From positions 35,215 to 99,214 of the forward strand of contig CAKOSE010000002.1 in the NCBI GenBank assembly GCA_934102055.1: DNA of 64,000 nt. The letters run 5' to 3'. Numbering within the stretch: the first letter of the stretch is position 1; every line of letters begins with the position of its first letter. Below the pieces are notes generated by a model. That model had not been told where the DNA came from and did not search any database. It was given only the letters and a program-made list of their open reading frames with translations. Made by a program: the position numbers and the translations under genes. This document shows positions 13,619-64,000 of this stretch, in pieces. The stretch comes from an uncultured Bacilli bacterium. GTDB taxonomy: Bacteria > Bacillota_I > Bacilli_A > RF39 > UBA660.

Positions 13619-13629
13619 TCTTAAACCTC

Positions 13630-16639
<3,010 letters not shown>

Positions 16640-16755: not shown

Positions 16756-17211
16756 TTAATCGCTTTTTTTTCCACTTTTTCTACTCTTAGAAATAGTCTC
16801 TAGCATATTACATCTAAAAATCTGATTTTTAATAGAAAAATATGGACAATTAACAACAATAGATTCACCATTAATAAAATTAATTTTAGTTCTCTTACCA
16901 TACTTTTCTACATTTCTTATCTTCTTATAAGAAATCCACGAAACACTAGAAGAATTAATAGCTTCCGTAGGAAAAAATATCAAATCTCTAGTTTCCTCAA
17001 CAATAATTGGAGTCTTATAAATACTACCAAGCATGCTTTTAGAACCAAGTACTCTTCCCTCAAAACTACTACCAAAATATCTACAAGAGTTTTCCATAAT
17101 AGAATAAGGAACATCATTAACAACGTAATCATCATCTACTTCTATTACTCTAGTCTTATCATCATCAAAAGACATAATAGCAAGAGTCTCATCATTAATT
17201 TCATATTTCAT
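16756..17211 (-). CDS. comK: ComK-family competence transcription factor homologue
   Basis: Aligns by eye with B. subtilis ComK: YEINDETLAI/YEVNGATIAV, SCRYFGSSFEGR/SCRFFGSSYAGR, KTPIIVEE..LIFFPT/KPPIMVDP..IFLFPT, WISY/WISH. ATG 17211 follows AGGGGGTG. Confidence 0.8.
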   Translation of the reverse strand: MKYEINDETLAIMSFDDDKTRVIEVDDDYVVNDVPYSIMENSCRYFGSSFEGRVLGSKSMLGSIYKTPIIVEETRDLIFFPTEAINSSSVSWISYKKIRNVEKYGKRTKINFINGESIVVNCPYFSIKNQIFRCNMLETISKSRKSGKKSD

Positions 17212-17324
17212 AGAATTCACCCCCTAAAACAATAAATTTCGCAATAAAAAATATTGCAATTTCTAAATTAACACTTTCACATGTCGAAAAAGATAGAAAT
17301 TTGTAGAAAACAAAAGAAAAAATA

Positions 17325-17360
17325 AAAAATTAGACCTATTTTTATTATGTCTAATTTTTT
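17325..17360. terminator. bidirectional intrinsic terminator downstream of dnaN
   Basis: AAAAATTAGAC, a 13-nt loop, then GTCTAATTTTT. Confidence 0.6.
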
Positions 17361-17403
17361 GTTCTGTATTTTCATAACTAATTAAAAACTTTCTTATAAA
17401 ATA

Positions 17404-17438
17404 AAGAACTTATTAACAATTGTTGTTAATAAGTTCTT
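17404..17438. promoter_or_regulatory. inverted pair of DnaA-box-like 9-mers overlapping the dnaN stop
   Basis: 15-nt arms at 17404-17418 and 17424-17438 contain TTATTAACA (17410-17418) and TGTTAATAA (17424-17432), with a 5-nt spacer. Confidence 0.55.
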
Positions 17439-18544: not shown

Positions 18545-18687
18545 AAATATACCTTCTTTCTTTTTTTATTATTAATATATTAATTTTATTATTACTGTTA
18601 ATATTGTTAATAAGTCCTAAAAAGCCTTTAATATCAACAGATAATACCAACAATAATTGTTAATAACTATTAACAATTTTAACAATT
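18545..18687 (-). promoter_or_regulatory. oriC part 2 (dnaA-dnaN spacer): tandem DnaA boxes, TAA trios and AT-rich unwinding candidate
   Basis: Minus strand reads TTATTAACA (18613-18605), ATATTAACA (18604-18596), G, then TAA-TAA-TAA (18594-18586), then about 40 nt of almost pure A/T up to the dnaN start. Further boxes at 18658-18666 and 18667-18675. Confidence 0.7.
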
Positions 18688-20058
18688 CTATGTTAATTGC
18701 TTCTCAATATTGTTAATAGCATCATTTAAATCTCTATTAATTTTCATTTCCCTTTCAATCTTATTACAGGCATGAATAACAGTAGCATGATTTTTTCCAG
18801 AAAACTCAATTCCAATTCTTTCAAAAGATTCATCAGTAAGTTTTCTACACAAATACATAGCAACTTGTCTAGGAATAGCAAGGTTTGGAGTCCTTTTCTT
18901 AGATTTCATATCTTCAAAAGAAATATTATAGAAATTAGCAACAATCTTTTGGATACGCCGTATATTATTTTGATCTGTAACAGCGTCTTTTCTAGTAAAA
19001 TCACGTAAAGCTTCCATTGCAAACTCAAGAGAAATATCAGTAACACACATAATCGCAGAATAAGCAACTAATCTAGTAATAGACCCCTCAAGCTGCCTAA
19101 CATCATTACCAATATTCGATGCAATATAAGCAATAACTTCTTCATTAATAAAAATATTTTCACCTTTTAATTTTTTTCTAATAATTGCAATCTTAAGAGA
19201 ATAATCCGGAGGACTAATATCAACTTGTAACCCCCAAGCAAAGCGTGTCCTAAGTCTATCTTCAAGAACTTTCAAATCCTCAGGAGATCTATCCGAGGAA
19301 ACAATAATTTGCTTACTATCATTATATAAGTTATTAAATGTATGAAAAAACTCTTGCTGAGTTTTTTCTGCCCCACCCAAAAACTGAATATCATCAATCA
19401 AAAGAACATCAACATTTCTATATTTATTCTTAAAAAACTCTACATAATCTAGATTATTGCCACTATTTCCTTTTCTAGCAATGCCAGTAAAATCATTCAT
19501 AAAGTCATCACTAGTAACATAAAGAACTCTCTTTTTATATTTATTCTCAATATAATTTCCTATAGCATGCATAAGATGAGTTTTCCCAAGACCACTATTT
19601 CCGTATATAAACAAAGGATTATACATAGTACCAGGATTTTCAGCAACAGCAAGAGCAGCAGCTTGAGCAAATTTATTAGATTCACCAACTACAAAACTCT
19701 CAAAAGTATAATTCTTATTAAGATTAGAAACATGAACACCAACAAAAGAATTATTATCATCAGAAGAATCTTTATCTTGATTTTTATCACTTTCCAAAAA
19801 ATCAGAAACATTCTCCTTAAGTATATATATAATGTTATCAACAGGTTCTGTTAATAACTTATTAAAACTATCAATAATAACATCTCTATAAGTAGAATCT
19901 ATATGAGTTTTATAAAGAAGTAAAGGAACAACAATCCTAATATTGTTCTTATCAATACCAATAAAATCAATAGCCATAAACCAAGTCTGATAAGTAATAG
20001 GGTCAACAATATTACTAATATTATCTAAAACTTTTTGCCACAACAATTTATTGTTCAT
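18688..20058 (-). CDS. dnaA: chromosomal replication initiator DnaA
   Basis: 456 aa. AAA+ motifs GNSGLGKTHL and LLIDDIQFL, plus the C-terminal DnaA-box-binding domain. Confidence 0.97.
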   Translation of the reverse strand: MNNKLLWQKVLDNISNIVDPITYQTWFMAIDFIGIDKNNIRIVVPLLLYKTHIDSTYRDVIIDSFNKLLTEPVDNIIYILKENVSDFLESDKNQDKDSSDDNNSFVGVHVSNLNKNYTFESFVVGESNKFAQAAALAVAENPGTMYNPLFIYGNSGLGKTHLMHAIGNYIENKYKKRVLYVTSDDFMNDFTGIARKGNSGNNLDYVEFFKNKYRNVDVLLIDDIQFLGGAEKTQQEFFHTFNNLYNDSKQIIVSSDRSPEDLKVLEDRLRTRFAWGLQVDISPPDYSLKIAIIRKKLKGENIFINEEVIAYIASNIGNDVRQLEGSITRLVAYSAIMCVTDISLEFAMEALRDFTRKDAVTDQNNIRRIQKIVANFYNISFEDMKSKKRTPNLAIPRQVAMYLCRKLTDESFERIGIEFSGKNHATVIHACNKIEREMKINRDLNDAINNIEKQLT

Positions 20059-20327
20059 AATACCATCTCCCCATTTCTGATAAAAGTTAATAACCTGTAT
20101 TTAATTGTAATACATTTTTATTTTTTTGAAAAGATAAAAAACTTATTAACAGAGTTATTAACATACTTATTAACAAATCTTTTCCTTTGATTACATACTA
20201 TAAAATAGATTTTAACAAATTTCAAGTAAAAAGTTGTTAACAACATTAACAATTGTTAAAAAGAAAATTGTTAATTAACGTTAATATTGTTAATAAGTAT
20301 CATTTTAAACAACAACAAACAAAACTA
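20059..20327. promoter_or_regulatory. oriC part 1: DnaA-box cluster upstream of dnaA
   Basis: Three direct TTATTAACA copies in 12-bp register (20143, 20155, 20167), an inverted copy at 20288-20296, several 1-2 mismatch copies at 20085-20280, and an AT-rich tract at 20101-20140. Strand and composition switch occur here. Confidence 0.75.
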
Positions 20328-20357
20328 TTGACAAACACCCTACTTTTCATATACAAT
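20328..20357 (+). promoter_or_regulatory. sigma-A type promoter of rpmH-rnpA operon
   Basis: TTGACA (20328-20333), spacer, then TACAAT (20352-20357). Confidence 0.6.
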
Positions 20358-20388
20358 AAAACCGATCAATTGATTGGAGGTGCACAAC

Positions 20389-20514
20389 GTGAAAAAAGGA
20401 ACTTTTCAACCAAATAATAGAAGAATGAAGAAAAAACATGGTTTCTTCTCTCGTATGAAATCAGGTATTATTAATTCAAGAAGAAGAAAAGGTAGAAAAA
20501 GATTATCAAAATAA
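20389..20514 (+). CDS. rpmH: 50S ribosomal protein L34
   Basis: Below the ORF-track size cutoff. GTG start lies 8 nt after GGAGG. Translation VKKGTFQPNNRRMKKKHGFFSRMKSGIINSRRRKGRKRLSK matches the L34 pattern. Confidence 0.9.
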   Translation: MKKGTFQPNNRRMKKKHGFFSRMKSGIINSRRRKGRKRLSK

Positions 20515-20556
20515 TAATCCACTAGAAAAAGTGGATTTTTGATTATGGAGGTATCT

Positions 20557-20898
20557 ATGAAAAAACAAAATATAGTTAAAAATTCAAAAGATTTTAATAG
20601 AATAATAAAAAAAAAACAAGGAAAAGCAAGTAAATACTTCATCATAAATAAAGAACAAAATGAAGAAATAACAAAATTTGGAATAACATTTACAAAACAT
20701 ATAGGAAATGCAGTAACAAGAAATAAGCTAAAAAGAAGAATAAAAAATATAATAGATACAAATCCAAAAATATATAATGCAAAAACAACATACATAATCA
20801 TAGCAAAAAAGTCTACTTTAGAATTAACCTATCAAGAATTAGAAAAACAATTGATATATCTTTTTAATAAAATAAAAAACGAGGAGATTAGTAAATGA
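20557..20898 (+). CDS. rnpA: RNase P protein component
   Basis: 113 aa. FGITFTKHIGNAVTRNKLKRRIK is the RNR-type motif. ATG 20557 follows GGAGG; the track start is 20539. Confidence 0.9.
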   Translation: MKKQNIVKNSKDFNRIIKKKQGKASKYFIINKEQNEEITKFGITFTKHIGNAVTRNKLKRRIKNIIDTNPKIYNAKTTYIIIAKKSTLELTYQELEKQLIYLFNKIKNEEISK

Positions 20899-21824
20899 AA
20901 AAAAATAACAAAATATTAAAATTATTATTAATATTTATATTAATGATAACACTAACAGGATGTACTCAAACACTGAAAGACAAAGATGGTAAAATAGTTA
21001 AAAACGAAGAAACAGGACAAACAATAACAGAAAATATAATTTGTAAACCAACAGATGAACAAACAATAAAAATATATGAAGAAAACAAAGTAGATATAAA
21101 AGATTTGCCTGAATGTAATAAAATGAAAGTATATGGAGAATACGAAGGACTTTGGAATTCATTCTTTGTAAGACCTCTAGCATATGCAATAATAAAAATT
21201 GGATCACTAGTAGGCTCAACTGCTATATCAATAATAATTATAACACTAATAATAAGATTAGCACTTTTCCCAATGACAAAGAAAACACTATTACAATCTG
21301 AAAATATGAAAAAAGCACAACCAGAAATTCAAAGAATAGAAAAAAAATATGAAGGGAAAACAGATAATGAATCAATGACAAAAAAAGGACAAGAAATGAT
21401 GATGATTTACAAAAAATATGAGATAAAACCATTATCAGGATGTCTATTTGCATTTATTCAATTACCAATTTTATTAGCATTCTGGGAAGCAATTAATAGA
21501 GTACCCGCAATATTTGAAGAAAAATTTTTAGGATTAAACATGGGAACAACCCCATCTGCAGCAATGGCTGCCGGTGATTGGTATTACATATTTATATGTG
21601 CAATACTAATAATAGTAACATACTTCTCATATAAACTAAATCCATCCATGGCAGGAAATGAACAAATGGCAAAACAACAAAAAATGATGACAACAATAAT
21701 GACGATCTTTATAGGATTTATGTCATTTACATTACCAACAGCTATAGCATTTTACTGGATAACATCATCCTTATTTACAATATTCCAAAACTTTTTAATA
21801 AAAAGGAGGAAGAAACATGAATAA
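20895..21824 (+). CDS. yidC: membrane protein insertase YidC (lipoprotein type)
   Basis: 309 aa. Lipobox LTLTGC and the YidC/Oxa1 core. ATGA overlap with rnpA. Confidence 0.92.
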   Translation: MKKNNKILKLLLIFILMITLTGCTQTLKDKDGKIVKNEETGQTITENIICKPTDEQTIKIYEENKVDIKDLPECNKMKVYGEYEGLWNSFFVRPLAYAIIKIGSLVGSTAISIIIITLIIRLALFPMTKKTLLQSENMKKAQPEIQRIEKKYEGKTDNESMTKKGQEMMMIYKKYEIKPLSGCLFAFIQLPILLAFWEAINRVPAIFEEKFLGLNMGTTPSAAMAAGDWYYIFICAILIIVTYFSYKLNPSMAGNEQMAKQQKMMTTIMTIFIGFMSFTLPTAIAFYWITSSLFTIFQNFLIKRRKKHE

Positions 21825-27687: not shown

Positions 27688-27723
27688 AAAGGAAAGTATA
27701 AATTTAAAACTATACTTTCCTTT
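27688..27723. terminator. bidirectional terminator between mnmE and the XRE gene
   Basis: AAAGGAAAGTATA, a 10-nt loop, then TATACTTTCCTTT. The right arm encodes the XRE C-terminus. Confidence 0.7.
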
Positions 27724-28150
27724 TTCTTCCTAAAACTCTATCAATAGAGATATCCTTATAAAACAATGATATACTATACAAAAAACTAGTAGGAATCAAA
27801 TACCTAGCATTTTCATAGTGAGCATAAGCAGAAGAACTAGTATTAAGAAATTTAGCAATATCTTGCTGAGTAAATCCCCTGCTTTTGCGAATAAGTTTAA
27901 GATTATTAGCAATAACATGAAGATCAACTACAAGTGGAAAATAATATTCATTAGTAGTTGATAACCCAAATAAATAATCTAAACTAAATCCAAAATAATT
28001 AGCATATTTAATAAGTTGCCTTAAAGGAATAGTATCCTTACCTGTTTCCCATCCTGAAATAGTAGAATAAGTAACATTAAATAAATTAATCAAATCTTTC
28101 TGTTTTAAGTTCAACATCTCTCTAGAAGATCTAAAGTTTTGAACAATCAT
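27710..28150 (-). CDS. XRE-family regulator with two tandem HTH domains
   Basis: 146 aa. Two Cro/C1 HTH units: LKQKDLINLFNVTYSTISGWETGK and FTQQDIAKFLNTSSSAYAHYENAR. Confidence 0.85.
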   Translation of the reverse strand: MIVQNFRSSREMLNLKQKDLINLFNVTYSTISGWETGKDTIPLRQLIKYANYFGFSLDYLFGLSTTNEYYFPLVVDLHVIANNLKLIRKSRGFTQQDIAKFLNTSSSAYAHYENARYLIPTSFLYSISLFYKDISIDRVLGRKRKV

Positions 28151-28223
28151 AGTAGAATCACCAAAATAATTGTCACATTAAATTGTAAAATATTGTTTAT
28201 TCTCGGGGAAATAGACCGAATTG

Positions 28224-28232
28224 TGATATAAT
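28224..28232 (+). promoter_or_regulatory. extended -10 element (TGATATAAT) for the 28346 operon
   Basis: Read directly in the divergent XRE intergenic region. Confidence 0.45.
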
Positions 28233-28345
28233 GATATTAAAGTAAGGAGGTATGTAAATATCAATGTGAAAAATTCAAAAGAACAATTAGAAAAAAAGGA
28301 TACTAAAATCCAACAAAAAGATAGTTATAAAAAGGAGGTAGTATA

Positions 28346-30148
28346 ATGAATAATAACAAAGAGTTATTTTCCAAATTAGATCAAGAAATATCAGATACTG
28401 ATTTATATTTTCTTTCAGGTGATTTTACAAGTGCAGTTAATGCATTTTCCTATTTAAAAAATAGTTATAACTTGACAGAACAAGAACTAATATCATATAT
28501 TGAGGAAAAGAGGAAAGAACTTGGAATTGATGAAAAACAAAGAAATAATAAAGAAAATTTTACTACTGAAATAAATCCCAACTATGAAGGGATAAGTAAA
28601 ATTAACCTTTCCTCTGCTCCTATGCGAAATAACCCTAAACGTGATGACAGAGCAGTACATCTAACTGATAAAAATGGTAATAGTATGAAAACAAGTAGGT
28701 TAATGATGGGTTACAATAAACAAAACATAGAACTAGAAAATGGCGATTATCTTAATATAGATGAATTTATGAATGCCTTAAAACAATATTTATCAGAACA
28801 ATCAGAAAATACTAACATAGTTGCAAAAAAAACCGGAAAAGTAGTATCCATAGAGGATTTTGAAAAACAAATAAGAACAGAATTAAAAGCCACTTCTACA
28901 TTAATTATAGGAAAAGGATCCAAGAAAATAAAACACACAAAAAATGTAGGTATATCAATAAAAGATAAAAAAATAACCGAAGTTATCAAAAAAGGTATAT
29001 TGTTTTTGAAAAAGGATGGTTTAGAGTTAGAACATGGAAACTATATCTATATAGGAGAAATAAAGGCAGCTCTCGACAAATATATGATGCAACAAGTACA
29101 ACCAGCTCCTTCTATAGACCCATCAAGTGCAGCAAAACAAACCCCACCAACTCCATCTCCAAACCCAGTTATTTCATCTCCAAACCCAGTTATTTCATCT
29201 CCAAACCCAATTATTTCATCTCCAAAACCAGAGGAACAACCAAGACATCCAGAAAATAAACCAGAAACTGCTAAAAGAAAAAACAAAGCCAAAAAAATAA
29301 TAATAGCAACTATAACAGGAATAACTATACTAGCATTAAGTGTTGGAATAAATCTTGACAAACTAACACACAAACAGATAAACGATTATTGGAAAGTAAC
29401 AGGGCAAACAAAAATATCTATGGAAATAGATGAACAAGACCAACAAACTATAGATAAGATATTAGAAAAAGAATTAGGAGACAATATAAATGTAAAATCT
29501 GGAGTAAACTATTACGAGTCAAGTGATTATAAATATGGAGGAGCCAATTCTCAAGAATCATTCGGAAACCCTGAAAGACCAGCCGGAACCTATAAACTAA
29601 GTTCTATTTCAATAATTGATCCGGACAAAGGAGAAATAGAAGGAGTAAGTTATACTGAAAATACCAATTTATATAATTTTACAAAACAAGTGTGTGAAGA
29701 AAAAAACCTGTCTTTAAACGACGTAGAAGTAATGTTACACATTGATGGCCCAGTCAGTGGTTGGATAAATGCCAAAGATTTATCATCAGCAAAATCCGAT
29801 TCTTTAGTAGAAATAAATCATCAAGACGAATATCATATACACGAAAAAAATATGGGAGCAAAGTTAACAACAGAATTTAAAACAGCAAAAGGAGAAATGG
29901 TTACTATCAAAGTAAAAGATGAAAATGGAAATAACTATCAAGCAGGAACAGAAGTTAAAGGATCAGATGGAAAAATATACACAATAGAATATGAAAATGA
30001 AACTGAAAATCTTGTTATAAAACCAAAACTATTTGAACAACTTCACATCCCAGCAATAAAACTTGGTCCACAACTAACCAAATTATCAGAAGAATTAAAA
30101 CTATTTAAAGAACAAAACTGGCAAGAAGAACAACAAAAACAAAGATAA
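28346..30148 (+). CDS. bitopic membrane protein, unknown function (cytoplasmic N-domain, Pro-rich linker, 1 TM, extracellular C-domain)
   Basis: 600 aa with a strong AAGGAGG RBS. TM segment is KKIIIATITGITILALSVGINL. Internal duplicated motif IELENGDYLNIDEFMNALKQYL / LELEHGNYIYIGEIKAALDKYM. PNPVISS repeats. Confidence 0.8.
   Translation: MNNNKELFSKLDQEISDTDLYFLSGDFTSAVNAFSYLKNSYNLTEQELISYIEEKRKELGIDEKQRNNKENFTTEINPNYEGISKINLSSAPMRNNPKRDDRAVHLTDKNGNSMKTSRLMMGYNKQNIELENGDYLNIDEFMNALKQYLSEQSENTNIVAKKTGKVVSIEDFEKQIRTELKATSTLIIGKGSKKIKHTKNVGISIKDKKITEVIKKGILFLKKDGLELEHGNYIYIGEIKAALDKYMMQQVQPAPSIDPSSAAKQTPPTPSPNPVISSPNPVISSPNPIISSPKPEEQPRHPENKPETAKRKNKAKKIIIATITGITILALSVGINLDKLTHKQINDYWKVTGQTKISMEIDEQDQQTIDKILEKELGDNINVKSGVNYYESSDYKYGGANSQESFGNPERPAGTYKLSSISIIDPDKGEIEGVSYTENTNLYNFTKQVCEEKNLSLNDVEVMLHIDGPVSGWINAKDLSSAKSDSLVEINHQDEYHIHEKNMGAKLTTEFKTAKGEMVTIKVKDENGNNYQAGTEVKGSDGKIYTIEYENETENLVIKPKLFEQLHIPAIKLGPQLTKLSEELKLFKEQNWQEEQQKQR
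29159..29221 (+). repeat. 21-bp tandem repeat, 3 units (encodes PNPVISS x3)
   Basis: CCAAACCCAGTTATTTCATCT twice, then CCAAACCCAATTATTTCATCT. Confidence 0.9.
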
Positions 30149-30164
30149 TAAAGGAGGAAAAAAC

Positions 30165-30404
30165 ATGAACATACAAATAGGAGAAATAATCGAATTAGAA
30201 GGCGGGAAAGAATTTATATGCTTTTCCAAAGCAGAAAAAAATGGAGATACCTACATATATTTAATGAGTAACTTCAAACCATTAGAAATAAAATTTGCAA
30301 GACTTTTAAACACAACTCCAGATGAACTAAAAATCGAAATAATAAATAATCAAGAAGAAAAAGAACAAGTTCTAGAATTATTTAAAAACATGCACCAAAT
30401 ATAA
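30165..30404 (+). CDS. small hypothetical protein
   Basis: 79 aa. AAGGAGG RBS. Starts 16 nt after the preceding gene. Confidence 0.6.
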   Translation: MNIQIGEIIELEGGKEFICFSKAEKNGDTYIYLMSNFKPLEIKFARLLNTTPDELKIEIINNQEEKEQVLELFKNMHQI

Positions 30405-30445
30405 AAAGTTACATCATTAAAAATATTGCAATGTAATAAACAAAT

Positions 30446-30480
30446 AAAACTAACAATCACTTAAAAATTGTTAGTTTTTT
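30446..30480. terminator. bidirectional terminator between the 30165 ORF and the AraC gene
   Basis: AAAACTAACAAT, loop, then ATTGTTAGTTTT. Confidence 0.65.
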
Positions 30481-30927
30481 CATTACAAATTTATCAGGTT
30501 TAGCCCTATTCAAATAATTTTCCTTCCTAAGAACAAAATCCCTAAGAATATAAACATTATTAGAAATAATCTCCTCTTCCTTAACAGAAACTAATTCTCT
30601 ACTAATAAAAAAATTTCTATAAACAGAAGGAGAAACCCCAACAACCTTCTTAAACACCTCAGAAAAATACTCCAAAGAATAAAAACCATTATCAAGACCA
30701 ATTTTAAGCAAAGAAAAATTATTATTTCTAACCTCTTCCAAACTATTATATATTCTAATATTATTAACATAACTAGTAATAGAAACACCCATCTCATGCT
30801 TAAAAAGTTTCATAATATAATATCTATTATAAAAAAATTCCCTTTCAATATCACTAATACTAATCTTTCTATCAATGTTTTTATCAATAAAACAAATAAT
30901 ATTACAAACAAGTTTATTAGAAAACAT
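30457..30927 (-). CDS. AraC-family HTH regulator (DNA-binding domain only)
   Basis: 156 aa. GFYSLEYFSEVFKKVVGVSPSVYR is the typical second AraC HTH. Confidence 0.85.
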   Translation of the reverse strand: MFSNKLVCNIICFIDKNIDRKISISDIEREFFYNRYYIMKLFKHEMGVSITSYVNNIRIYNSLEEVRNNNFSLLKIGLDNGFYSLEYFSEVFKKVVGVSPSVYRNFFISRELVSVKEEEIISNNVYILRDFVLRKENYLNRAKPDKFVMKKLTIFK

Positions 30928-31021
30928 TTAATCACCAAAACAATTATATCACAAAACACCACAATTGTTTAAATAAATCCAATAAAACCCAGTATAATAA
31001 AACATGAAAGGAGCAAAAAAC

Positions 31022-32260
31022 ATGAAATATTCAAGTTGGATGTCTAAAAAAGACATAAAAAAGAACCTAAACCAAACACAAAGTCAGAAAGGAGGAATAA
31101 TACCACTTATATATGAAAACGATCAAGCATATGGAATTGATATAGCAAACACCATAGTAATAGGATCATCTGGATCAGGAAAAACACAAAACATAATACT
31201 TCCAACCATAAAAAGCATTATAAAAAACAATGAATCATTCATAATAAATGATCAAAAAGGAGAAATGAAACAAGCAACAGAAACCCTATTAAAAGAACAA
31301 AAATATAATGTAATTGATCTATCGTTCGAAAACCCACAAACAAAACACAAATGGAATCCATTCGAATTACCAAAAAAACTATACAAAGAAAACAAAAAAG
31401 AAGAAGCTTTAAACATAATAGAAGAAACAATGACTATCCTATTCCAAGAACCAGCACCACCAATTGATCCATTTTGGACCTTATCCGCAAGAGACTTAGC
31501 AACAGGAACAGTCTTATATCTACTTGAAAATAACAAAGAAGTAACATTAAAAGAAATATACAAAACAGCGCAAACAATCACAAAAAAAACACTAGAAGAA
31601 CTAGATAAGCTAGGATCAACCTACTGCTTCCTATCAGGAACCCTAGTAGCACCAGAAGAAACAAAAAATTCAATCCTAACAGTATTTAATCAAACAATCA
31701 AAGATTACATCACAAAAGATAATACTAACAATATAATATCAATAACAAACTTCGATATAACAAAAATAAAAACAGAAAAAACAGCCCTATTCATAAACGA
31801 TAATAATAAAGAAATAACTAATGTACTAATACCAGTCCTAATAAGTCAAATAGTAAAAACAGTAGAAATATATAACCAAAAAGAAAATAAACTAAACATA
31901 GTAATAAAAGACTTTGACGACTTAGTAACAATGAAAAACTACTCAAAAATACTAATGAAATCAAAAAAATATAACATAAACAATCTAATAACAATACAAG
32001 GTCTAATAACAATAGAAAACAAATATAACAAAGAAGACATAAGACTAGTAGCAATAAATATGACAAACTTAATATACTTATATTCACAAGATCTGAGAGT
32101 ATTAAGAGAAATATCTCTTGTGTGTGGAAACGAATCAAGATGTGAACCACTAGCAACAATCGAAGAACTACAAAGAATAAACCAAAACGAAGCAATAATC
32201 AAAATACCAAGATTAAATCCAATAAAAATAGATTTAATACCGGATTATGAAGTAAAATGA
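31022..32260 (+). CDS. soluble VirD4/TraG-like (type IV coupling protein family) NTPase lacking TM segments
   Basis: Walker A GSSGSGKTQNIILPT. FIINDQKGEM...YNVIDLSF..KWNPF and DPFWTLSARDLATGTVLYL follow the T4CP pattern. ATG 31022 follows AAAGGAG. Confidence 0.7.
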   Translation: MKYSSWMSKKDIKKNLNQTQSQKGGIIPLIYENDQAYGIDIANTIVIGSSGSGKTQNIILPTIKSIIKNNESFIINDQKGEMKQATETLLKEQKYNVIDLSFENPQTKHKWNPFELPKKLYKENKKEEALNIIEETMTILFQEPAPPIDPFWTLSARDLATGTVLYLLENNKEVTLKEIYKTAQTITKKTLEELDKLGSTYCFLSGTLVAPEETKNSILTVFNQTIKDYITKDNTNNIISITNFDITKIKTEKTALFINDNNKEITNVLIPVLISQIVKTVEIYNQKENKLNIVIKDFDDLVTMKNYSKILMKSKKYNINNLITIQGLITIENKYNKEDIRLVAINMTNLIYLYSQDLRVLREISLVCGNESRCEPLATIEELQRINQNEAIIKIPRLNPIKIDLIPDYEVK

Positions 32261-33939
32261 GAAAATATATATCAAAAATAAAACCACAAATAGCAGTATA
32301 TACATTTTTATTAATAATAACAACAATAATAAATGTAGTGATCCCAACAATCAATGCAAATCTATTAACAAATTTAACCAAATTCAACATAAAACTAGCA
32401 TTCATATTTGCTATATCATTATTACTAATTACAATTATAAAAGTGATATTTAATAAACTAAGTAATCATTTTTCAATGAAAATAAGAGAAAAAATACTTT
32501 ATAATATAAGATTAGATATGATAAAACAAATATTTAAAATGAAAATAAAAAACTTTGATAAAACACCATCTGGATTCTTTCAAGAAAGAATAAAACAAGA
32601 TCCGATTGTCATAAACAATGGGTTTAGTATAGTACAGTATAGTTTATTCTCTATAATAAAAGAACTAGCAATGTTAATATATGTATTCTATTTAAATATA
32701 TATATAGGATCAGTATTTGTGGTAGGAATTATCATAGTCTATTTATATGAAAAAATAGCATATGAAAAATACGAACAAGTAAATAAAGAAATAATGGAAA
32801 CAGCAGATAAAACTGGAACAATATTAAATGAAACATTAAAAGGAATGAAAGAAATAAAATTGCTCAATATAACACAAAAATTTACTAATTTAGTTGGAGA
32901 ATCATTAAATAAAAGAAATAAATTAGAAACTAAATCATCAGATATAAGAATATCAATATATAATACAACAGAAATAATGGAAGCAATAATAACATTTGCA
33001 GTTTTAGCATTAGGTATTTACTTAGTAAAAATAAACCTTCTAACTTTAACAGGATTTCTAATCATATTTATGTATAAAACAGATATATTTGGTATAGTAT
33101 TAAGTTACACATCCCTAAAAGAATATTTAGTAAAATATAAAGTTTCAAAAGAAAGAATAAAAGAAATATATAATGAAGAACAATATCCAGTAGAAACATT
33201 TGGTTCAAAAACTATCCAAAACGCAAAAGGAATAATAGAATTTAAAAATGTAAAGTTTTCCTACACAAAAAAACAAATCCTAAAAGGCATTACCTTTAAA
33301 GTAAAAGAAAATGAAAATATCGCAATAGTAGGAAAAAGTGGAAGTGGCAAAAGTACAATATTTAATTTATTAACAAAAAGTTATACCGATTATGAAGGAA
33401 TAATAACATTGGATGGAATAGATATAAAAGAATTAACTCAAGAATCATTAAGAAATAATATATCTATAATCACACAAAGCCCTTATATATTTAATCTAAC
33501 AATAAAAGAAAATCTAAAATTAATAGATAGAAAAATAACCGATAAACAAATGAAAGAAGCATGTAAAAAAGCAAAAATCCATGACTATATAGAAAGTTTA
33601 CCAAAGGGATATGACACTCTTCTAGGAGAAGGAGGAACAACCCTTTCAGGAGGACAAAAACAAAGATTAGCGATAGCAAGAGCATTACTAAAACAAAGCA
33701 AAATATTATTATTTGATGAAGCAACTTCTGCATTAGATAATATAACGCAGAAAGAAATAAATGAACAAATAAAAGATATGTCAAAAGATCACACAATAAT
33801 AACAATAGCACATAGACTATCAACAATAATAGATTCAGATAATATATATCTATTAGAAAAGGGAACAATTATAGGTTCAGGAACCCATAAACAATTAATA
33901 AAAAATAACAAAAAATATCAAGAATTATATAAAAAATAA
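32257..33939 (+). CDS. ABC exporter, fused permease-ATPase
   Basis: 560 aa with an N-terminal 6-TM region. Walker A GKSGSGKST, signature LSGGQKQRLAIARA, Walker B ILLFDEATS. ATGA overlap with the upstream gene. Confidence 0.93.
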   Translation: MRKYISKIKPQIAVYTFLLIITTIINVVIPTINANLLTNLTKFNIKLAFIFAISLLLITIIKVIFNKLSNHFSMKIREKILYNIRLDMIKQIFKMKIKNFDKTPSGFFQERIKQDPIVINNGFSIVQYSLFSIIKELAMLIYVFYLNIYIGSVFVVGIIIVYLYEKIAYEKYEQVNKEIMETADKTGTILNETLKGMKEIKLLNITQKFTNLVGESLNKRNKLETKSSDIRISIYNTTEIMEAIITFAVLALGIYLVKINLLTLTGFLIIFMYKTDIFGIVLSYTSLKEYLVKYKVSKERIKEIYNEEQYPVETFGSKTIQNAKGIIEFKNVKFSYTKKQILKGITFKVKENENIAIVGKSGSGKSTIFNLLTKSYTDYEGIITLDGIDIKELTQESLRNNISIITQSPYIFNLTIKENLKLIDRKITDKQMKEACKKAKIHDYIESLPKGYDTLLGEGGTTLSGGQKQRLAIARALLKQSKILLFDEATSALDNITQKEINEQIKDMSKDHTIITIAHRLSTIIDSDNIYLLEKGTIIGSGTHKQLIKNNKKYQELYKK

Positions 33940-43280: not shown

Positions 43281-45281
43281 ATGAAAAAAAGTAAAGCATT
43301 CACCCTAGTCGAAGTCCTAGTAGTAATAGTAATACTAGCCCTACTAGCACTCTTAATAATACCAAACATAACTAAATACACAGAAAAAGCAAAAGATAAA
43401 TATAACGACTCACTAAAAGACGAATTACTACTCGCAGGAAAAGACTTTTACACAAACAACAGATCAAGAATACCCACAAGCATAAGCCCATATCTAAACG
43501 ACTACGTATCACTAAAAGAACTAGCATCACAAAACTACATATCAAAAGAATTCCTAGACAAAAACAAAAACAATTGTATGGACAAAAGTTACGTAGCAAT
43601 AACAAGAAAAGAAGGTACAAATAAATACAATTACAACGTTTGTTTAATATGTGGAGGACAAAAAGTTGAGTGGGATGATCAATATTGTAGTGCCTCAAAA
43701 ATATCCCAAGTATCTTGTGAGCAACAAATATCAAATTTATCTGAAAACAAAGAAAAAGGAAATGTAGAAATAAACTATTATCATGGCGATGAATACATAG
43801 ATATAACAATAAAACCTCCAAAACATGACAATCAAACAGTAATAGTAAACGGAACACTAAAACTTAAAAAAGCAGCACAACCAGGACAAGTTTCTTATAA
43901 GTTAATAAATAAAGCAACAAACAAAATTATAAAAACAGGTAATATAAATAAAAATACTCCTATTGCACTTATTGATAACCAAATAGAAGGACAAGAACCA
44001 CAAGAATACAGATTATCTTTTTCTCAAAATAACAAACAACTAAATCTAAAAAATGGAAGCATTGATATAGAACTAAACATAAAAACTAACATAGAATACA
44101 ATTTCGATTATAAAAAAAAGGCCCAAGAATTCTAAGTCCCTGTAACAGGAGACTATACAATAGAGCTTTGGGGAGCAGCAGGAAACTATAAACAAACTAC
44201 AATAGATAAAGTAGGAAAAGGAGCATACACAAAAGGAATAATTACTTTACAAGAAAGAGAAAAACTATATATTTATACAGGTAAAAATGCAACAGATAAC
44301 GATAAAGATGAAGATGCCTATAAAAAAGAATCCTTTAATGCTGGAAGTACTGCACAAGGAATAATAAAATATCCAAAAAATTCTAATAATCTTACAGGAT
44401 ACCATAACTCATCATCTGGAGGAGGGGCAACAGATGTAAGATTAAAAAAAGAAACAAATTGGAACGATGAAAAAAGCTTACAATCTAGAATAATGGTAGC
44501 AGCAGGAGGTGGCGGAACTCAGTATTATTATTCAACATCAGGAACAGAACAAAAAGTCCTAGGAATCGGAGGAGCCGGTGGAGGTCTAATGGGCTATCCA
44601 GGTTCACAAAAATTTATAACAGGACTTAGTAGAAGTAACATTCACATTCTTGAAAATTATGGAAAAACAACAAATGTAACGGGATACAATCAAGAATTTG
44701 CATTTGTCTCGGGTGGTTCTCAAACATCAGGAGGTCTTGCAAATAAATGTATAAAAAATTCAAAAGAATGTGACTCAGAATCAAAGGGAAGCAATGGGTC
44801 CTTCGGAATCGGCGGAAATGGTTCAAAAAATGAAGCTGGAGGCGGAGGCGGAGGCGGCTACTACGGCGGAGGTGGTGGTGGTGTAGCACACTTTACTGAA
44901 GCTGAATCAGGACTTTGCCACTCTTCCGGAGCAGGAGGCTCATCTTACATATCTGGTCATACAGGAAGTATCTCATATATAAACAAAAACAATTCATCAT
45001 GTAAAGAAATAGTAAAAGATCATAATCCATCTACTTACGAAGGAACAACAAAAAAAGAATGTTCATACTATGATAATACTTACATCTTTAAAAATACAAC
45101 AATGGTAGATGGACAAGGTTATGTATGGAAAAATAAAAGAACAACAAAAAAATCATTAGATAAACCAAATACAGGTTCAGGAAAAGCCAAAATAACATCA
45201 CAAAATCAAAGTACAACAAGTACATTAAAACTAACTTCAAAAACAATAGATTGTACAGTAAAAAGAGTACAAAGCAAGTAG
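43281..45281 (+). pseudogene. prepilin-type N-terminal signal + glycine-rich-domain protein, one frame of 666 codons interrupted by a single in-frame TAA (44133-44135)
   Basis: N-terminus MKKSKA/FTLVEVLVVIVILALL is the class III signal with E+5. I translated 44136-44492 and found no stop, in the same frame as both track ORFs. The junction reads FDYKKKAQEF-stop-VPVTGDYTIELWGAAG. Downstream: SSGGGATDVRL, VAAGGGG, GGGGGGYYGGGGGG. Confidence 0.75.
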
Positions 45282-45355: not shown

Positions 45356-46384
45356 ATGAAAAGTACAAAAATAATGATAGAAAAAATAAAAGAAATAAAC
45401 TTCAAAAGAATGGATCAATTAGCAAAATATATAGCAGAACAAAATAACAAAACTCCAGGATACGTAAAAAGAGATATGTTTAAAAACTTCTTAAAATATA
45501 AAATAGGATACACAGACTATTTCAAGAGTGATTATATAAATCTAACAACAAAACAAAAAGAAGACTTCGTAACATCAAGAAACTTCTTCAACATCTTAGC
45601 ATACCTAAACCCAAGAGAATATAGAATAGTAACAAAAGATAAACTAATCTTTAACCAAATATTTAAAGACTATATAAAAAGAGATTTTATAGATATAAGA
45701 ACCTCTTCCGAAGAAGATATAAAAAAATTCATTAAAGGAAAAAAACACGTTTTTGCAAAACCAAACACAGACTTCGGAGGACATAACATAGAAAAAATAA
45801 CAGTCAAAGACATAACAGATCTAAAAGAATTCAAAAATAAACTAATCCAAAACAAACAATATCTCCTAGAAGATGAAATAATCCAAAACAAAGAAGTAAA
45901 TAAAATAAATCCAAATGCAGTAAACACATTTAGAATAATAACCCTATATAAAGATGGAAAGGCTCATGTCCTAGCAAACTCATTTAGAATAAGCCTAGAC
46001 GAAAACCCTGCTATTCAATGTTGGGACGCATATATGAGACTAAATGAAGACGGAACCCCAGCCTGCAAATTCGTAGACGATGCCGGAAAAATATTCGACA
46101 CCCATCCCCTAACAGGATTTGATTTTAACACCATAAAAAAAATACCATACGTAAAAGAATCATATGAAATGGTAAAACAAGCAGCCCTACTAATTCCAGA
46201 AATAAGATATATAGGTTGGGATGTAGCACTAACAGAAAAAGGTCCAGTAGTAATCGAAGGAAACGAATATCCAAGCTATGGACTAATCCAAAACTATTTA
46301 TTAAACAAAGATAATCCAGGGCACCTAAAACAAATAAAAGATGTTCTAGGAGAAGAATTTAAAAATATAAAATTAAACAATTAA
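45356..46384 (+). CDS. ATP-grasp protein (sugar-transfer-associated ATP-grasp type)
   Basis: 342 aa. HVFAKPNTDFGGHNIEK, NAVNTFRIITL and IGWDVALTEKGPVVIEGNEYPS fit the ATPgrasp_ST pattern as I recall it. Confidence 0.7.
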   Translation: MKSTKIMIEKIKEINFKRMDQLAKYIAEQNNKTPGYVKRDMFKNFLKYKIGYTDYFKSDYINLTTKQKEDFVTSRNFFNILAYLNPREYRIVTKDKLIFNQIFKDYIKRDFIDIRTSSEEDIKKFIKGKKHVFAKPNTDFGGHNIEKITVKDITDLKEFKNKLIQNKQYLLEDEIIQNKEVNKINPNAVNTFRIITLYKDGKAHVLANSFRISLDENPAIQCWDAYMRLNEDGTPACKFVDDAGKIFDTHPLTGFDFNTIKKIPYVKESYEMVKQAALLIPEIRYIGWDVALTEKGPVVIEGNEYPSYGLIQNYLLNKDNPGHLKQIKDVLGEEFKNIKLNN

Positions 46385-60567: not shown

Positions 60568-60627
60568 TTGATTTTTTTCTTTTTTTATGATAAAATCTAT
60601 ATAAATTTATTCAAAGGGGGACTAATC

Positions 60628-61779
60628 GTGAAAAAACAAAACCAAATAATTGAAGTAGTACTAGATAAAACAAATCAAAAAGTAGAAACATTCATAGTAA
60701 ATGGAAAAGAATATAAAAGAAAAGATAAAGAAACATATAAAGAATTCCTAACAAGAATCTCTAAAAAAAGAAGAAACAAAGAAATATTTAAAAATAACTA
60801 TAACAAAGAAACAATAAAAGTATATACACAAGAAGAATATAAAAGAAAAGATCAAAAAACAATAAAAAACATAAAACTATATCAAAACAACATAAATAGA
60901 TGTAAAAAAGCAGTCCTAAACGGTTCTCAAATAAAACTAAAACACTCAGAATATAACCTAGGAAAACAAATATCTGCAACACAAGATATAGGAAATAAAA
61001 AAGCAAACCAAGAAGATTCAGTATTAATCTTAGAACATCCCAAAAACAAAAACTTCAAACTACTAGCAGTAGCAGACGGTATAGGAGGAAGAGAACAAGG
61101 AGAATTAGCAAGTAATAACGTCATGAAAAAACTAATTAAATGGTTTGAAAACCAAAACCAAAAAACATATATAAATATAGCAAGAGGAACATTAGCATTA
61201 GATAAATTAATGAAAAACATCTTAGACGACGTAGAAATAAGTACACAAGCAGGAACAACCCTATCACTTGCACTAGTAGGACAAACAGAAACCCTAATAG
61301 CAAACATTGGAGATTCAAGAGTATATACCCTAAAAGAACAAGAACTAATAAAGCAAACAAAAGACGATTCATACGTACAAATGTTATATGATAAAAAAGA
61401 AATCCCATCCGAAGAACTAATGAGATATCATAAACAAAGCAACATAATAACAAAAGCAATAAAAAAAGGAACCCCAAACAAACTAACATATAAAATAATA
61501 GACAACAACTCATACGAAAGAATAATCCTAACAACAGATGGAGTAACAGACTGCCTATCACAAAAAGAAATCCAAACAATAGCACAAGTCGCAGACAAAG
61601 AAACAATAACAAAAGATCTAGTAGACTGTGCAAAAATAAATTATAGTACCTTACAAAGTCTAAAAAATAACACAAATAAACAAGTAGTAAAACACATAGA
61701 AACAAACGAAAACAAATATCAAAAACAAATCCCCGGAGGAAAAGATAACCTATCCGCAGTAGCATATTCAAAAAAATAA
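60628..61779 (+). CDS. PP2C-family Ser/Thr phosphatase with a novel roughly 140-aa N-terminal extension
   Basis: PP2C motifs NQEDS, VADGIGG, ANIGDSRVY and LTTDGVTD. GTG 60628 follows AAAGGGGGA. Confidence 0.88.
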   Translation: MKKQNQIIEVVLDKTNQKVETFIVNGKEYKRKDKETYKEFLTRISKKRRNKEIFKNNYNKETIKVYTQEEYKRKDQKTIKNIKLYQNNINRCKKAVLNGSQIKLKHSEYNLGKQISATQDIGNKKANQEDSVLILEHPKNKNFKLLAVADGIGGREQGELASNNVMKKLIKWFENQNQKTYINIARGTLALDKLMKNILDDVEISTQAGTTLSLALVGQTETLIANIGDSRVYTLKEQELIKQTKDDSYVQMLYDKKEIPSEELMRYHKQSNIITKAIKKGTPNKLTYKIIDNNSYERIILTTDGVTDCLSQKEIQTIAQVADKETITKDLVDCAKINYSTLQSLKNNTNKQVVKHIETNENKYQKQIPGGKDNLSAVAYSKK

Positions 61780-61825
61780 TGAATAAAACAAAAGAATAAG
61801 TATCATTACCCTTATAGGTGATAAA

Positions 61826-62359
61826 ATGAAAAAACTTATTCTTTTATTATTAGCAGGACTAATCCTAATCGGAGTAATAAATAATTACAAAGAAGACTAT
61901 TACATAATCCCAGATCAATCAATCAGAATAAGAATAATACCAAACAGCAATAGTCTAAAAGATCAATACCTAAAAAAACAAGTAAAAACCAATCTAGAAA
62001 TAGAACTACAAAACAATCTAAAAAACACAGAAACCATAGAAAACACAAGAAAAATAATAAAAAATAACCTAGACAACTACAATAAAAAAATAAAAGAAGT
62101 CTTAACAAATGAAAACACATCACAAAAATTCACAATAGACTACGGTTACCATCACTTCCCAGAAAAAACATATAAAGGAGTAAAATACGAAGAAGGAGAA
62201 TACGAATCACTACTAGTAACTATAGGAAAAGGACAAGGAGATAACTGGTGGTGTGTACTATTTCCACCAATTTGTTCCCTAGAAGAAGACGAACACTCAA
62301 ATGAAAATATAGAATATAGTTTTTATATAAAAGAAATGTTTGATAAATATATAAAATAA
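61826..62359 (+). CDS. spoIIR: stage II sporulation protein R
   Basis: 177 aa. Signal/TM, IRIRIIPNSNS..DQ.LK, and GQGDNWWCVLFPPIC. Confidence 0.9.
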   Translation: MKKLILLLLAGLILIGVINNYKEDYYIIPDQSIRIRIIPNSNSLKDQYLKKQVKTNLEIELQNNLKNTETIENTRKIIKNNLDNYNKKIKEVLTNENTSQKFTIDYGYHHFPEKTYKGVKYEEGEYESLLVTIGKGQGDNWWCVLFPPICSLEEDEHSNENIEYSFYIKEMFDKYIK

Positions 62360-62394
62360 CATCTCTTTTTTTTATGCAAAAATCCCCAAACAAA

Positions 62395-62423
62395 TTGACA
62401 AACACATGTCATAGTGCTACAAT
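62395..62423 (+). promoter_or_regulatory. near-consensus sigma-A promoter with extended -10
   Basis: TTGACA (62395-62400), a 17-nt spacer, then TGC-TACAAT (62415-62423). Confidence 0.65.
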
Positions 62424-62458
62424 AAATGCCAAACCAAAAAGCAAAGGGGGAGCTTTTT

Positions 62459-64000
62459 ATGAAAAAAAATAAACAATTCAAAGCAGAAACAATAATTGAC
62501 GAAACAGGAAAAGCACTATTCTTAATAATAAATGGAAAAAAATATAAAAGAAAAAAACACGAAACAAACCAAGAACTTTTCCTAAGAGTAGGACTAAACA
62601 AAAGAAACAAAGCAGATGTTGCAAAATACTATAAACCAGAAGAATTAATAGTATATACACAAGAAACATATAACAAAATAATGCAAAAAGAAAAACCAAA
62701 AAAACTATCAAATAAAACAAAAGCTAGTCCTAGTTTAAAACAAAGAGTAGGAGCAGTAACAGTAGCAGCAGTAATGATGCTATCTGCATATATTGGTCCT
62801 AACCTTGCAAAAGCATACAAAGACAGTAAAGTATACGCAACAAAAACAGAACAAGATGCAAAAGTAAGTAACCAAAAACTAAATAAATTATATGAAAAAC
62901 TAAAAAAGACAGAAAATGGAGAAACAATAGTAAAACAACTAAAAGAAACAGATAAATTCCAAAAAGATTTCAACAAAAGAATGCAAAACTATCCAGATGA
63001 AAATGGTAACGTACTATTTCTAAAAGCTAGAGAAGTAGCAGCAGTACAAGACATATCAAATGCAGAAGACACAGATTTCATTTCATTAGACGATAATGAA
63101 CCAAGAGTTTGTGATTATTTAGAGGCAGCAACTTACACAACAATAGGAGTATATGTTTCAGAAGAAAGTATAGGAGAACATACTTTAATCCATGATAAAG
63201 AAACAAGCCAAGAAATGAAAAAAGAAGCAGATTATGCTATAGCAACAATGAAAGGAAATACAAAAACCGAAGAAATAAATAATCATTATGCTAAATTCAA
63301 CAAAACAGGATTCACATATGGAGCAGTCGGATCTAATGTAGCCTTTCTAGGATACGCCTCAAACGCAGTAATATCCCAAAATGGAGCAGCAAGTAATGAA
63401 TTAGAAAAAATAACAACCACAGCAACTAAAGATAACAAAGGATTAAATAACCAAAACTCACACGCAAACGCAGCATCAAAATCTGCAACACCAGACCAAA
63501 AAAGATTAATAAATAAAGTTCTAAAAGAACTTGATAAAAATAATATAAATGTAAATATAAAATCAAGAGATGATTTCAGCATGGAAACAACAGAAAAAGG
63601 AAAAAAAGTAAAAGAACAAATAACCATTAATGCCGATGGGACATATAGTTATACAGAAGATAATAGAACAAACACAATAACCTACAGAATATCACGAGAA
63701 GAAGCAATAAAACGTTTTGGATTAAAAATAGTAAAAGAAGCCGAAAAGGAAGCAGATAAAAAAGCAGGAATAGACGAAAAAAATAAACAAGAAGAACAAC
63801 AGGGGCAAGAATTAGAAAAACAAGCAACAGCAGCATATAATGCCGGAAGGGATGATGCTCTTGCAGGCAAGCCAAATCAATATCCAAACAATCAAAGCTA
63901 TTGTCGAGGATACAATGAAACCAAGGAAACAATGAACGAACAAAAAGAAGAAATAATCGAAGACAAAACAAACACAGACACAACATATGAGGATTATCAA
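62459..64000 (+). CDS. bitopic membrane protein, unknown function, 3'-truncated by the window edge
   Basis: Absent from the track because there is no stop. I read 514 open codons from ATG 62459, which follows AAAGGGGGA. The N-terminal module is paralogous to the PP2C N-terminus. TM segment is VGAVTVAAVMMLSAYIG. Confidence 0.8.
   Translation, partial: MKKNKQFKAETIIDETGKALFLIINGKKYKRKKHETNQELFLRVGLNKRNKADVAKYYKPEELIVYTQETYNKIMQKEKPKKLSNKTKASPSLKQRVGAVTVAAVMMLSAYIGPNLAKAYKDSKVYATKTEQDAKVSNQKLNKLYEKLKKTENGETIVKQLKETDKFQKDFNKRMQNYPDENGNVLFLKAREVAAVQDISNAEDTDFISLDDNEPRVCDYLEAATYTTIGVYVSEESIGEHTLIHDKETSQEMKKEADYAIATMKGNTKTEEINNHYAKFNKTGFTYGAVGSNVAFLGYASNAVISQNGAASNELEKITTTATKDNKGLNNQNSHANAASKSATPDQKRLINKVLKELDKNNINVNIKSRDDFSMETTEKGKKVKEQITINADGTYSYTEDNRTNTITYRISREEAIKRFGLKIVKEAEKEADKKAGIDEKNKQEEQQGQELEKQATAAYNAGRDDALAGKPNQYPNNQSYCRGYNETKETMNEQKEEIIEDKTNTDTTYEDYQ

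Follow-up and report, generated by a model that had tools for sequence, protein, structure and literature searches.

We present here an analysis of the right-hand end of a 64,000-nucleotide (nt) stretch of contig CAKOSE010000002.1 from an uncultured Bacilli bacterium, hereafter the window. Three plus-strand genes lie there in the order PP2C phosphatase open reading frame (ORF), spoIIR, and membrane-protein ORF (Table 1). The first ~77 residues of the phosphatase and of the membrane protein are homologous, and this shared N-terminal stretch, here called the module, is the subject of this report. As an earlier note on this DNA had pointed out, the ORF at 62459 runs off the window; it was completed to 545 amino acids (aa) from a metagenome contig (L001, 10634-12271). 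The locus is present on 11 independent metagenome contigs, mostly from human gut samples, and the PP2C start at 60628 was also chosen by independent gene calls on 11 metagenome contigs.

Table 1. Features of the PP2C-spoIIR-membrane protein locus, in window coordinates
Feature	Coordinates	Strand	Remarks
Predicted sigma-A-type promoter of PP2C gene	60568..60596	+	TTGATT-17-TAAAAT, TG extension; consensus scan
Shine-Dalgarno sequence of PP2C gene	60613..60621	+	AAAGGGGGA, membrane-gene type
PP2C ORF	60628..61779	+	GTG start, seven bases after AAAGGGGGA; 383 aa
Module copy 1 (PP2C residues 1-77)	60628..60858	+	A3 profile E = 1.4e-34
Conserved linker between module and catalytic domain	60859..60981	+	..NIKLYQNNINRCKKAVLNGSQIKLKHSEYNLG..
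Stp1-like PP2C catalytic domain	60982..61779	+	Residues ~119-383 plus stop
Candidate forespore-type (sigma-F/G-like) promoter of spoIIR	61780..61808	+	TGAATA-N18-CATTA
spoIIR	61826..62359	+	177 aa; PF09551, 2.8e-37
Predicted sigma-A-type promoter of membrane gene	62395..62423	+	TTGACA-17-TACAAT, TG extension; 11/12 match
Conserved leader and Shine-Dalgarno sequence of membrane gene	62425..62451	+	Leader AATGCCAAaCCAAAAA; Shine-Dalgarno AAAGGGGGA
Membrane-protein ORF	62459..64000, continuing beyond the window	+	545 aa in full
Module copy 2 (membrane-protein residues 1-77, probably cytoplasmic)	62459..62689	+	Profile E = 1.9e-35
Single hydrophobic transmembrane segment, residues ~97-116	62747..62806	+	VGAVTVAAVMMLSAYIGPNL; read in translation
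Polymorphic ectodomain	62807..64000, continuing to residue 545	+	

Homology and distribution of the module

The earlier note had reported a gapless similarity of about 74 residues between the two N-termini, with 27 identities; the ungapped alignment has 28 of 74, the additional one being the start codon. The pair gives a Smith-Waterman score of 136, against 36.3 ± 6.7 for 5,000 composition-preserving shuffles (z = 15; 0 of 5,000 reach it), and BLASTP with compositional matrix adjustment aligns it with an E value of 1e-10 (32 of 78 residues identical). At the DNA level, identity is 73.8% over 206 nt (blastn E = 7e-27). Both N-termini are lysine-rich and the genome has a GC content of 28.6%, but the shuffle and composition-adjusted tests rule out a chance or compositional resemblance of two K/N/E-rich sequences, the DNA match and the retention of the module in other genomes argue against it too, and we give this explanation next to no weight. 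Orthologues of the membrane-protein module were found in L010, L014, and L019. The two genes also have the same ribosome-binding site (RBS), as the note had observed: AAAGGGGGA occurs exactly twice in the 64 kb (60613-60621 and 62443-62451), where 0.23 occurrences are expected. The 600-aa protein at 28346, proposed in the note as a further bearer, gave no match at E ≤ 10 with profiles of two and seven sequences and filters off, nor did its ELENGDYLNIDEF repeats match the module profile; it resembles the membrane protein solely in its general bitopic layout.

The module had not been recognized when it was first described, and it proved to be a discrete domain without a match in Pfam, NCBIfam, PHROGs, PDB sequences, or Foldseek. 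Pfam scans of seven module members gave a best E value of 0.02, with no family common to two members; NCBIfam gave no match, and the PHROGs gave nothing on the module, the matches being generic ones to the PP2C domain. Profile searches of the PDB gave best E values of 0.024 to 0.13, none significant, the best collinear match being the N-terminal docking domain of the nonribosomal peptide synthetase (NRPS) Kj12C (6ewu, E = 0.13, profile positions 7-64). An AlphaFold2 model built from a four-sequence alignment (pLDDT 71, pTM 0.55) predicts the order strand-strand-strand-helix-helix-strand-helix; Foldseek found no neighbor for it (best E 1.1 in the PDB and 0.18 in BFVD), and 6ewu was absent among its matches. 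A single-sequence AlphaFold2 model of the whole PP2C protein (pLDDT 40) was unusable. The hydrophobic and turn pattern is kept across 12 diverged module copies, while charges are not conserved; the window copies have a pI of 9.8 to 10.0 and 18 to 22 K+R in 74 residues. We conclude that the module, of about 75 residues, is a genuine small domain family held by no current library.

An exhaustive HMMER scan of 1.84 billion representatives returned five matches, one of them spurious: a membrane-protein allele (P0005), an N-terminal fragment of the PP2C, a membrane-protein orthologue (P0007), the 255-aa soluble protein P0008, and P0006. The last, a 3,490-aa repeat protein (E = 1e-6), was rejected as repeat-inflated, at 5 to 8 bits per repeat, and was lost with a broader profile. 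P0008 joins a module that is 75% identical to the L014 membrane-protein module to an unrelated C-terminal part. P0008 is followed by a tandem pair of small membrane proteins (L009, 915-1671), paralogues with 66% identity across 65 residues; each has a conserved 'IPVIIILLGTLDLGKAVM.G.DKK.KEAQK' segment, and neither matches a known family.

Among the genomes scanned, the module was found in a single GTDB species genome; none was found in viral contigs, and in word-index homology searches the module retrieved nothing beyond fragments of the PP2C and membrane proteins. The 'VVNGKYYD..G' repeats of the downstream 638-aa protein gave no profile match to it. PADLOC detected no defense system, just a 29-bit PP2C-domain match to the candidate model PDC-M21C, and nothing for the membrane proteins or P0008. 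Judging from these searches, the module occurs in just one clade of uncultured, AT-rich, spore-forming gut Bacilli, where its hosts are the presumably cytoplasmic tail of the membrane protein, the PP2C protein in zero, one, or two copies, and one unrelated soluble protein. Across the compared lineages, it is borne most constantly by the N-terminal tail of the single-pass membrane protein that is encoded just after spoIIR.

Copying of the module between genes

The proposal that the module links a PP2C phosphatase to a membrane protein holds in the window and again in lineage L017, but it fails as a universal pairing. The window PP2C carries one module, matching that of its own membrane protein at z = 15, and the L017 PP2C carries one of a different flavor, matching its own membrane protein at z = 31. 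In L014, the PP2C has two tandem diverged modules (m1 versus m2, z = 21; independent profile E = 1.6e-5), which match the membrane protein weakly (z = 2.7 to 5.9). The PP2C N-termini of L015 and L018 are not detectably module-related, with no detectable match, and L019 combines a PP2C without the module with a membrane protein that has a canonical one. By hhalign, the canonical module matches the diverged PP2C type with a probability of 95% (P = 1.7e-8) and, less firmly, the L017 type with 77% (P = 2e-5; reversed control, 5e-3); the L015 and L018 N-termini gave P values of 0.17 to 0.28, no better than reversed controls.

In the window and L017 lineages, sequence comparisons group module copies with others from the same genome and not with those on the same kind of host protein. 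Neighbor-joining bootstrap values are 100% for the L017 PP2C/membrane pair, 96% for L014 m1/m2, and 60% for the window pair. The window PP2C module scores z = 12 to 15 against the membrane-protein modules of four lineages and P0008, versus 0.7 to 7.5 against other PP2C N-termini. A G-run RBS is universal on the membrane gene and occurs on the PP2C gene only in the window and L017 lineages, the other lineages having AGGAAG or GTAGGTGG types. In the window and L017 lineages, the PP2C gene thus carries the RBS type of the membrane gene, whose 5′ end is therefore the probable donor. Matched and unmatched lineages cannot be told apart by overall identity across the 70 nt upstream; the RBS type alone distinguishes them.

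In the window pair, all 27 of the 27 identical residues are encoded by identical codons, where 6.1 differences are expected from local codon usage (P ~ 4e-4). The synonymous divergence (dS) of the pair is 0.22 to 0.30 and the nonsynonymous divergence (dN) ~0.5, rough estimates from ~41 synonymous sites. Divergence from the orthologues in a sister species (L014) is higher, with a dS of 0.54 to 0.74 for prfA, prmC, the PP2C catalytic domain, and spoIIR, and of 1.12 for the second membrane gene. The L017 pair is saturated at synonymous sites (dS 2.3) with a low dN of 0.41 (ratio 0.18), and thus purifying selection has long maintained both copies of this old pair. We take these patterns to mean that the PP2C gene has repeatedly received a copy of the membrane gene's 5′ end, the latest such event having occurred in the window lineage once it had separated from L014. 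Other proteins have acquired module copies on more than one occasion: on the window PP2C, independently on the L017 PP2C, in the L014 tandem, and in P0008.

The PP2C and module-bearing membrane proteins evolve much faster than their neighbors. Identity between the window and L014 is 45% for PP2C and 47% for the module-bearing membrane protein, against 94% for PrfA, 76% for PrmC, and 75% each for SpoIIR and the second membrane protein. Between species, dN/dS is ~1 for the module, 0.58 for the PP2C catalytic domain, and 0.24 for SpoIIR.

Host proteins, promoters, and genomic setting

The PP2C and SpoIIR identities given in the earlier note were confirmed. The PP2C catalytic domain belongs to PF13672 (2e-12; 47.5 bits, cutoff 24) and PF00481 (40.1 bits, cutoff 20.3), and SpoIIR belongs to PF09551 (128.5 bits, cutoff 25) and scores 135.5 bits against TIGR02837, under the equivalog cutoff of 151.9. 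Against NF033484 (3e-40), the window PP2C scores 138.2 bits and its L014 orthologue 121.7, below the equivalog cutoff of 230; on these scores the window protein is Stp1-like and not an Stp1/IreP equivalog. Its closest solved relatives are 'Phosphorylated protein phosphatase' chains (5f1m and others, 1.3e-18), PstP, and Stp1 (2pk0). The metal-coordinating motifs NQED, VADGIGG, TTDGVTD, and GGKDN are intact in the translation, the first three of them inside the 5f1m alignment (query residues 105-318), and the protein is apparently an active Ser/Thr phosphatase. PHROG families 5650 and 17277 match its catalytic part, and an orthologous PP2C is labeled 'Bacilli bacterium' at NCBI.

The window protein resembles the Stp1/PrpC/PstP PP2C (PPM) phosphatases in its catalytic domain, families, and metal-binding motifs. 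It differs from them in its N-terminal extension of ~118 residues (module plus linker), its lower NF033484 score, and its unusually fast evolution. A Hanks kinase is the usual partner gene of these phosphatases; no protein-kinase family was found in the PP2C neighbors or scanned window ORFs, and thus no adjacent Hanks-type (PASTA) kinase. Variable N-terminal heads direct the regulation or localization of other PP2C phosphatases, such as RsbU, whose N-terminal domain binds RsbT, and SpoIIE. The window PP2C shares this concept of a head, but neither RsbU_N nor PF07228 (SpoIIE) was among its Pfam families at E ≤ 1, the 383-aa translation shows no hydrophobic segment, in contrast to the multi-pass membrane N-terminus of SpoIIE-type phosphatases, and its head is a copy of a domain also present on the neighboring membrane protein.

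Every PP2C relative read has the linker, even ~300-aa forms beginning at that point and forms with unrelated N-terminal domains. In other organisms, the subfamily with the linker ..C....L.G.Q...H.EY.LG bears at least two other unrelated N-terminal domains, one with recurring 'FTS.NGAR'-like motifs and one starting MKKIYEAKG.EK (P0054, P0061, P0071, P0074, P0077, P0079, P0081, and P0092; P0078, P0106, P0109, and P0111). The linker may serve generally as the place where exchangeable heads attach. In L021 (2606-4943), spoIIR lies between two PP2C paralogues, one with an N-terminal head and the other starting at the linker; within the contig's reach, the latter occupies the place of the membrane-protein gene.

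The membrane protein has a hydrophobic segment after the module, as the note had proposed; it lies at residues ~97-116, and all orthologues have one at the equivalent position. Its ectodomain of ~430 residues has no family or PDB match. In a comparison of two alleles from the window species, identity is 88 to 100% in the first ~200 residues and at the C-terminus but 42 to 68% across residues ~240-520. Between L010 and L014, the flanks have 93 to 97% DNA identity, and 1.1 kb of the ectodomain is without detectable DNA similarity. Ectodomain identities are 56% for L010/L017, 67% for L014 versus L015 and L018, and only 34% for L010/L014. By these comparisons, the ectodomain is a swapped, recombining polymorphic cassette whose types are common to several species. 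Polymorphic surface-protein loci likewise have a central ectodomain that is replaced between strains within nearly identical flanks; here, however, the cassette sits on a protein whose conserved, presumably cytoplasmic tag is also on a phosphatase, and it matches no known adhesin or receptor family. The actinobacterial fhaA-fhaB-pstP cluster also has, near a PP2C, a single-pass membrane protein whose small N-terminal domain is cytoplasmic, but the phosphatase there does not have the shared domain, and no FHA family was found in the Pfam scans here.

The product of the next gene downstream (L001, 12293-14209; L014, 7708-9471; L019, 8179-10257) is a conserved single-pass membrane protein; its N-terminus is N/Y-rich, and it has tandem ~33-residue cysteine-bracketed repeats, PPKYYCAVVNGKYYDxKGNxVSKxxYxxAC. 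By eye, the repeats number four in the window species, two in L014, and six in L019, and the protein has no Pfam, NCBIfam, or PDB match.

The three genes are predicted to form separate transcription units, with the PP2C and membrane genes apparently sigma-A driven. A TTGACA/TTGATT-17-TAAAAT/TATAAT promoter precedes the PP2C gene in six of seven lineages, with TTGACA-17-TAAAAT/TATAAT at the same place in L014, L015, L016, L017, and L018; in L019, the PP2C gene overlaps prmC instead. The membrane-gene promoter, TTGACA-17-TAyAAT with a TG extension and a conserved leader, is present in seven of seven lineages. Co-expression of the two genes is therefore plausible. The TGAATA-N18-CATTA element of spoIIR has the same spacing in all six lineages compared; its tentative sigma-factor assignment follows the Bacillus consensus. 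The leader and GAAGGGGGA of the membrane gene are conserved across L010, L014, L015, L017, L018, and L019. The leader segment AATGCCAATCCAAAAAAGAAGGGGGA, between the −10 box and the RBS (62425-62440), is kept in L010 and L014-L019 despite coding identities there of 30 to 50%, which suggests a regulatory role.

The block PBP1-rpoE-prfA-prmC-PP2C-spoIIR-membrane protein-second membrane protein-HAD-murA is kept in L014, L015, L018, and L019. In L017 and L022, the order is altered to spoIIR-PP2C-membrane protein, with the three genes still adjacent. The window is the oriC-proximal part of a Firmicutes-type chromosome (28.6% GC), with gyrA, gyrB, recF, dnaN, and dnaA on one side of the origin and yidC, jag, mnmE, mnmG, rsmG, noc, soj, and spo0J on the other; it also carries spoVT, mfd, and the RNA polymerase delta subunit gene. 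The replication-origin region spans 11168-21824, where the first group lies on the minus strand and ends at 20058, yidC and jag lie on the plus strand from 20895, and gene orientation flips at ~20.1-20.9 kb.

Other features of the window include a small signal recognition particle (SRP) RNA (10803-10888, minus strand; RF00169, 60.6 bits), which overlaps a mechanically called 182-aa ORF (10383-10931) that is therefore probably not a gene. An apparent inserted block between mnmE and mnmG (27710-33939) holds a double HTH_3 regulator, the 28346 bitopic protein (itself with an internal repeat, ELENGDYLNIDEFMNALKQYL / ELEHGNYIYIGEIKAALDKYM), an AraC-type regulator, a 418-aa VirD4/TraD-like coupling-protein homologue, and an ABC transporter; it may be a mobile-element remnant. 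At 43281-44135 lies a pilin-like protein bearing an N-terminal methylation motif; next come a protein with an ALK/LTK-type glycine-rich domain (44493-45281) and a sugar-transfer-associated ATP-grasp protein (45356-46384). In a GTDB species-representative metagenome-assembled genome (L007 and L008, CAVFIB01 contigs), the locus is 91 to 95% identical in DNA to that of the window species. The genome is titled 'Bacteroidaceae bacterium', but the window species has a Firmicutes/Bacilli-like gene content (SpoIIR, SpoVT, GerQ, and the low-GC RNA polymerase delta subunit), and the label is probably wrong.

Possible roles of the shared module

We suggest, with a probability of roughly 0.4, that the module serves as a homotypic docking tag in the cytoplasm, by which the phosphatase is tethered to the polymorphic membrane protein. 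Module copies would self-associate in the cytoplasm, and a soluble enzyme whose module matches the tail of the membrane protein would be recruited to it. The apparently active Ser/Thr phosphatase would thereby be placed at the membrane, beneath a variable, surface-exposed ectodomain. We infer both this docking role and the sensor-like role of the membrane protein. Points in favor are the composition-controlled homology, the narrow family with three host architectures and a tandem pair, the by-genome clustering, the G-run RBS on PP2C solely in matched lineages, and the codon identity and low dS of the window pair. The likeness of the P0008 module to the L014 tail, the conserved sigma-A-type promoters, and the intact catalytic motifs are also consistent with it. 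TubC-type docking domains of NRPS and polyketide synthases are likewise small, N-terminal, partner matching, and built of strands then helices, but the match to 6ewu (E = 0.13) is nonsignificant, no Foldseek PDB neighbor falls below E = 1, and hosts and biology differ.

Several observations weigh against docking. The L014 modules have diverged, no relationship could be detected between the L015 and L018 N-termini or between either of them and the module, and the L019 PP2C, like many ~300-aa relatives, is without any module. The window copies diverge fast (dN/dS ~1.6-2.4), unlike sequences selected to stay identical. The monomer model is of moderate confidence (pLDDT 71), derives from four sequences, and is without a structural neighbor, and the topology of the membrane protein was inferred from its translation. 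P0008 comes from a different sample and may not share a genome with the L014 allele.

Both modules could instead bind a common third partner, the same fast-evolving cytoplasmic ligand or protein, such as a Hanks-type kinase, a phosphoprotein, or a phage or mobile-element product, with the phosphatase and membrane protein as parallel clients. One module on three unrelated C-terminal parts would fit this, as would the rapid evolution of the module and PP2C catalytic domain (dN/dS ~1 and 0.58), as in an arms race, and the different heads that related PP2Cs bear on the same linker, which suggest interchangeable targeting heads. However, no candidate partner emerged; the scanned window ORFs contained no kinase, there was no defense match other than the weak PP2C-domain one, and by-genome clustering is explained no better than by self-association; we consider a third partner rather unlikely. 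Also fairly improbable is that the module is a neutral by-product of 5′-end duplication or gene conversion between genes 1.8 kb apart, a dispensable cap without functional coupling. Judging from its relatives, which include module-less orthologues at the same locus and many ~300-aa forms, PP2C works without the module in some lineages; the N-termini are unmatched in L014, L015, and L018, the RBS was apparently copied along with the coding part, and high dN/dS fits weak constraint. Yet the event occurred independently at least twice, in addition to P0008 and the tandem pair, the L017 pair (dS 2.3, dN 0.41, ratio 0.18) bears the mark of purifying selection on both copies, and the hydrophobic and turn pattern persists in 12 diverged copies.

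Nonspecific binding of DNA, RNA, or acidic lipids by a K/R-rich head (pI ~10) would accord with the basic composition of the window copies, but the whole proteome is K-rich (10%), the L014 PP2C and L017-type modules are, by eye, not notably basic, and the hydrophobic core and turns are conserved where the charges are not; this explanation is very unlikely. We also regard as highly improbable the note's suggestion that the pair is possibly sporulation linked, in the form of PP2C and the membrane protein acting with SpoIIR in forespore-to-mother-cell signaling. The organism has the sporulation genes for SpoIIR, GerQ, and SpoVT, and the three genes stay adjacent even where their order has changed. 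However, the link is only positional, since each gene has its own conserved promoter and that of spoIIR alone is of forespore type, and the adjacency is inherited, since the entire prfA-prmC...murA block is syntenic. The PP2C is moreover Stp1-like, without a PF07228 match at E ≤ 1 or a membrane domain, and SpoIIR evolves slowly (dN/dS 0.24) where both neighbors are fast. A literature search for spoIIR plus PP2C returned nothing relevant.

PP2C phosphatases with accessory N-terminal heads are a known theme; new here is an uncatalogued domain copied between a phosphatase and a neighboring membrane protein, within the narrow scope of one clade. The fast evolution of both proteins and the exchange of ectodomain cassettes point to strong diversifying pressure. 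A bolder extension of the docking reading, speculative and distinctly unlikely as a whole, is that a fast-diversifying self-recognition tag couples a recombining surface ectodomain to PP2C in an undescribed two-protein transmembrane signaling or surveillance module, with specificity reset whenever the tag is copied again from the membrane gene onto the phosphatase gene. If true, the tag-coupled module could take part in strain recognition or in an arms race, phages being one possible opponent. The locus is compact and testable, with two genes and a 75-residue domain in poorly known, uncultured, spore-forming gut Bacilli. If the tag docks, a soluble Ser/Thr phosphatase would be rewired to different membrane proteins by the copying of a short 5′ gene segment, a natural case of specificity reset through intragenomic copying.

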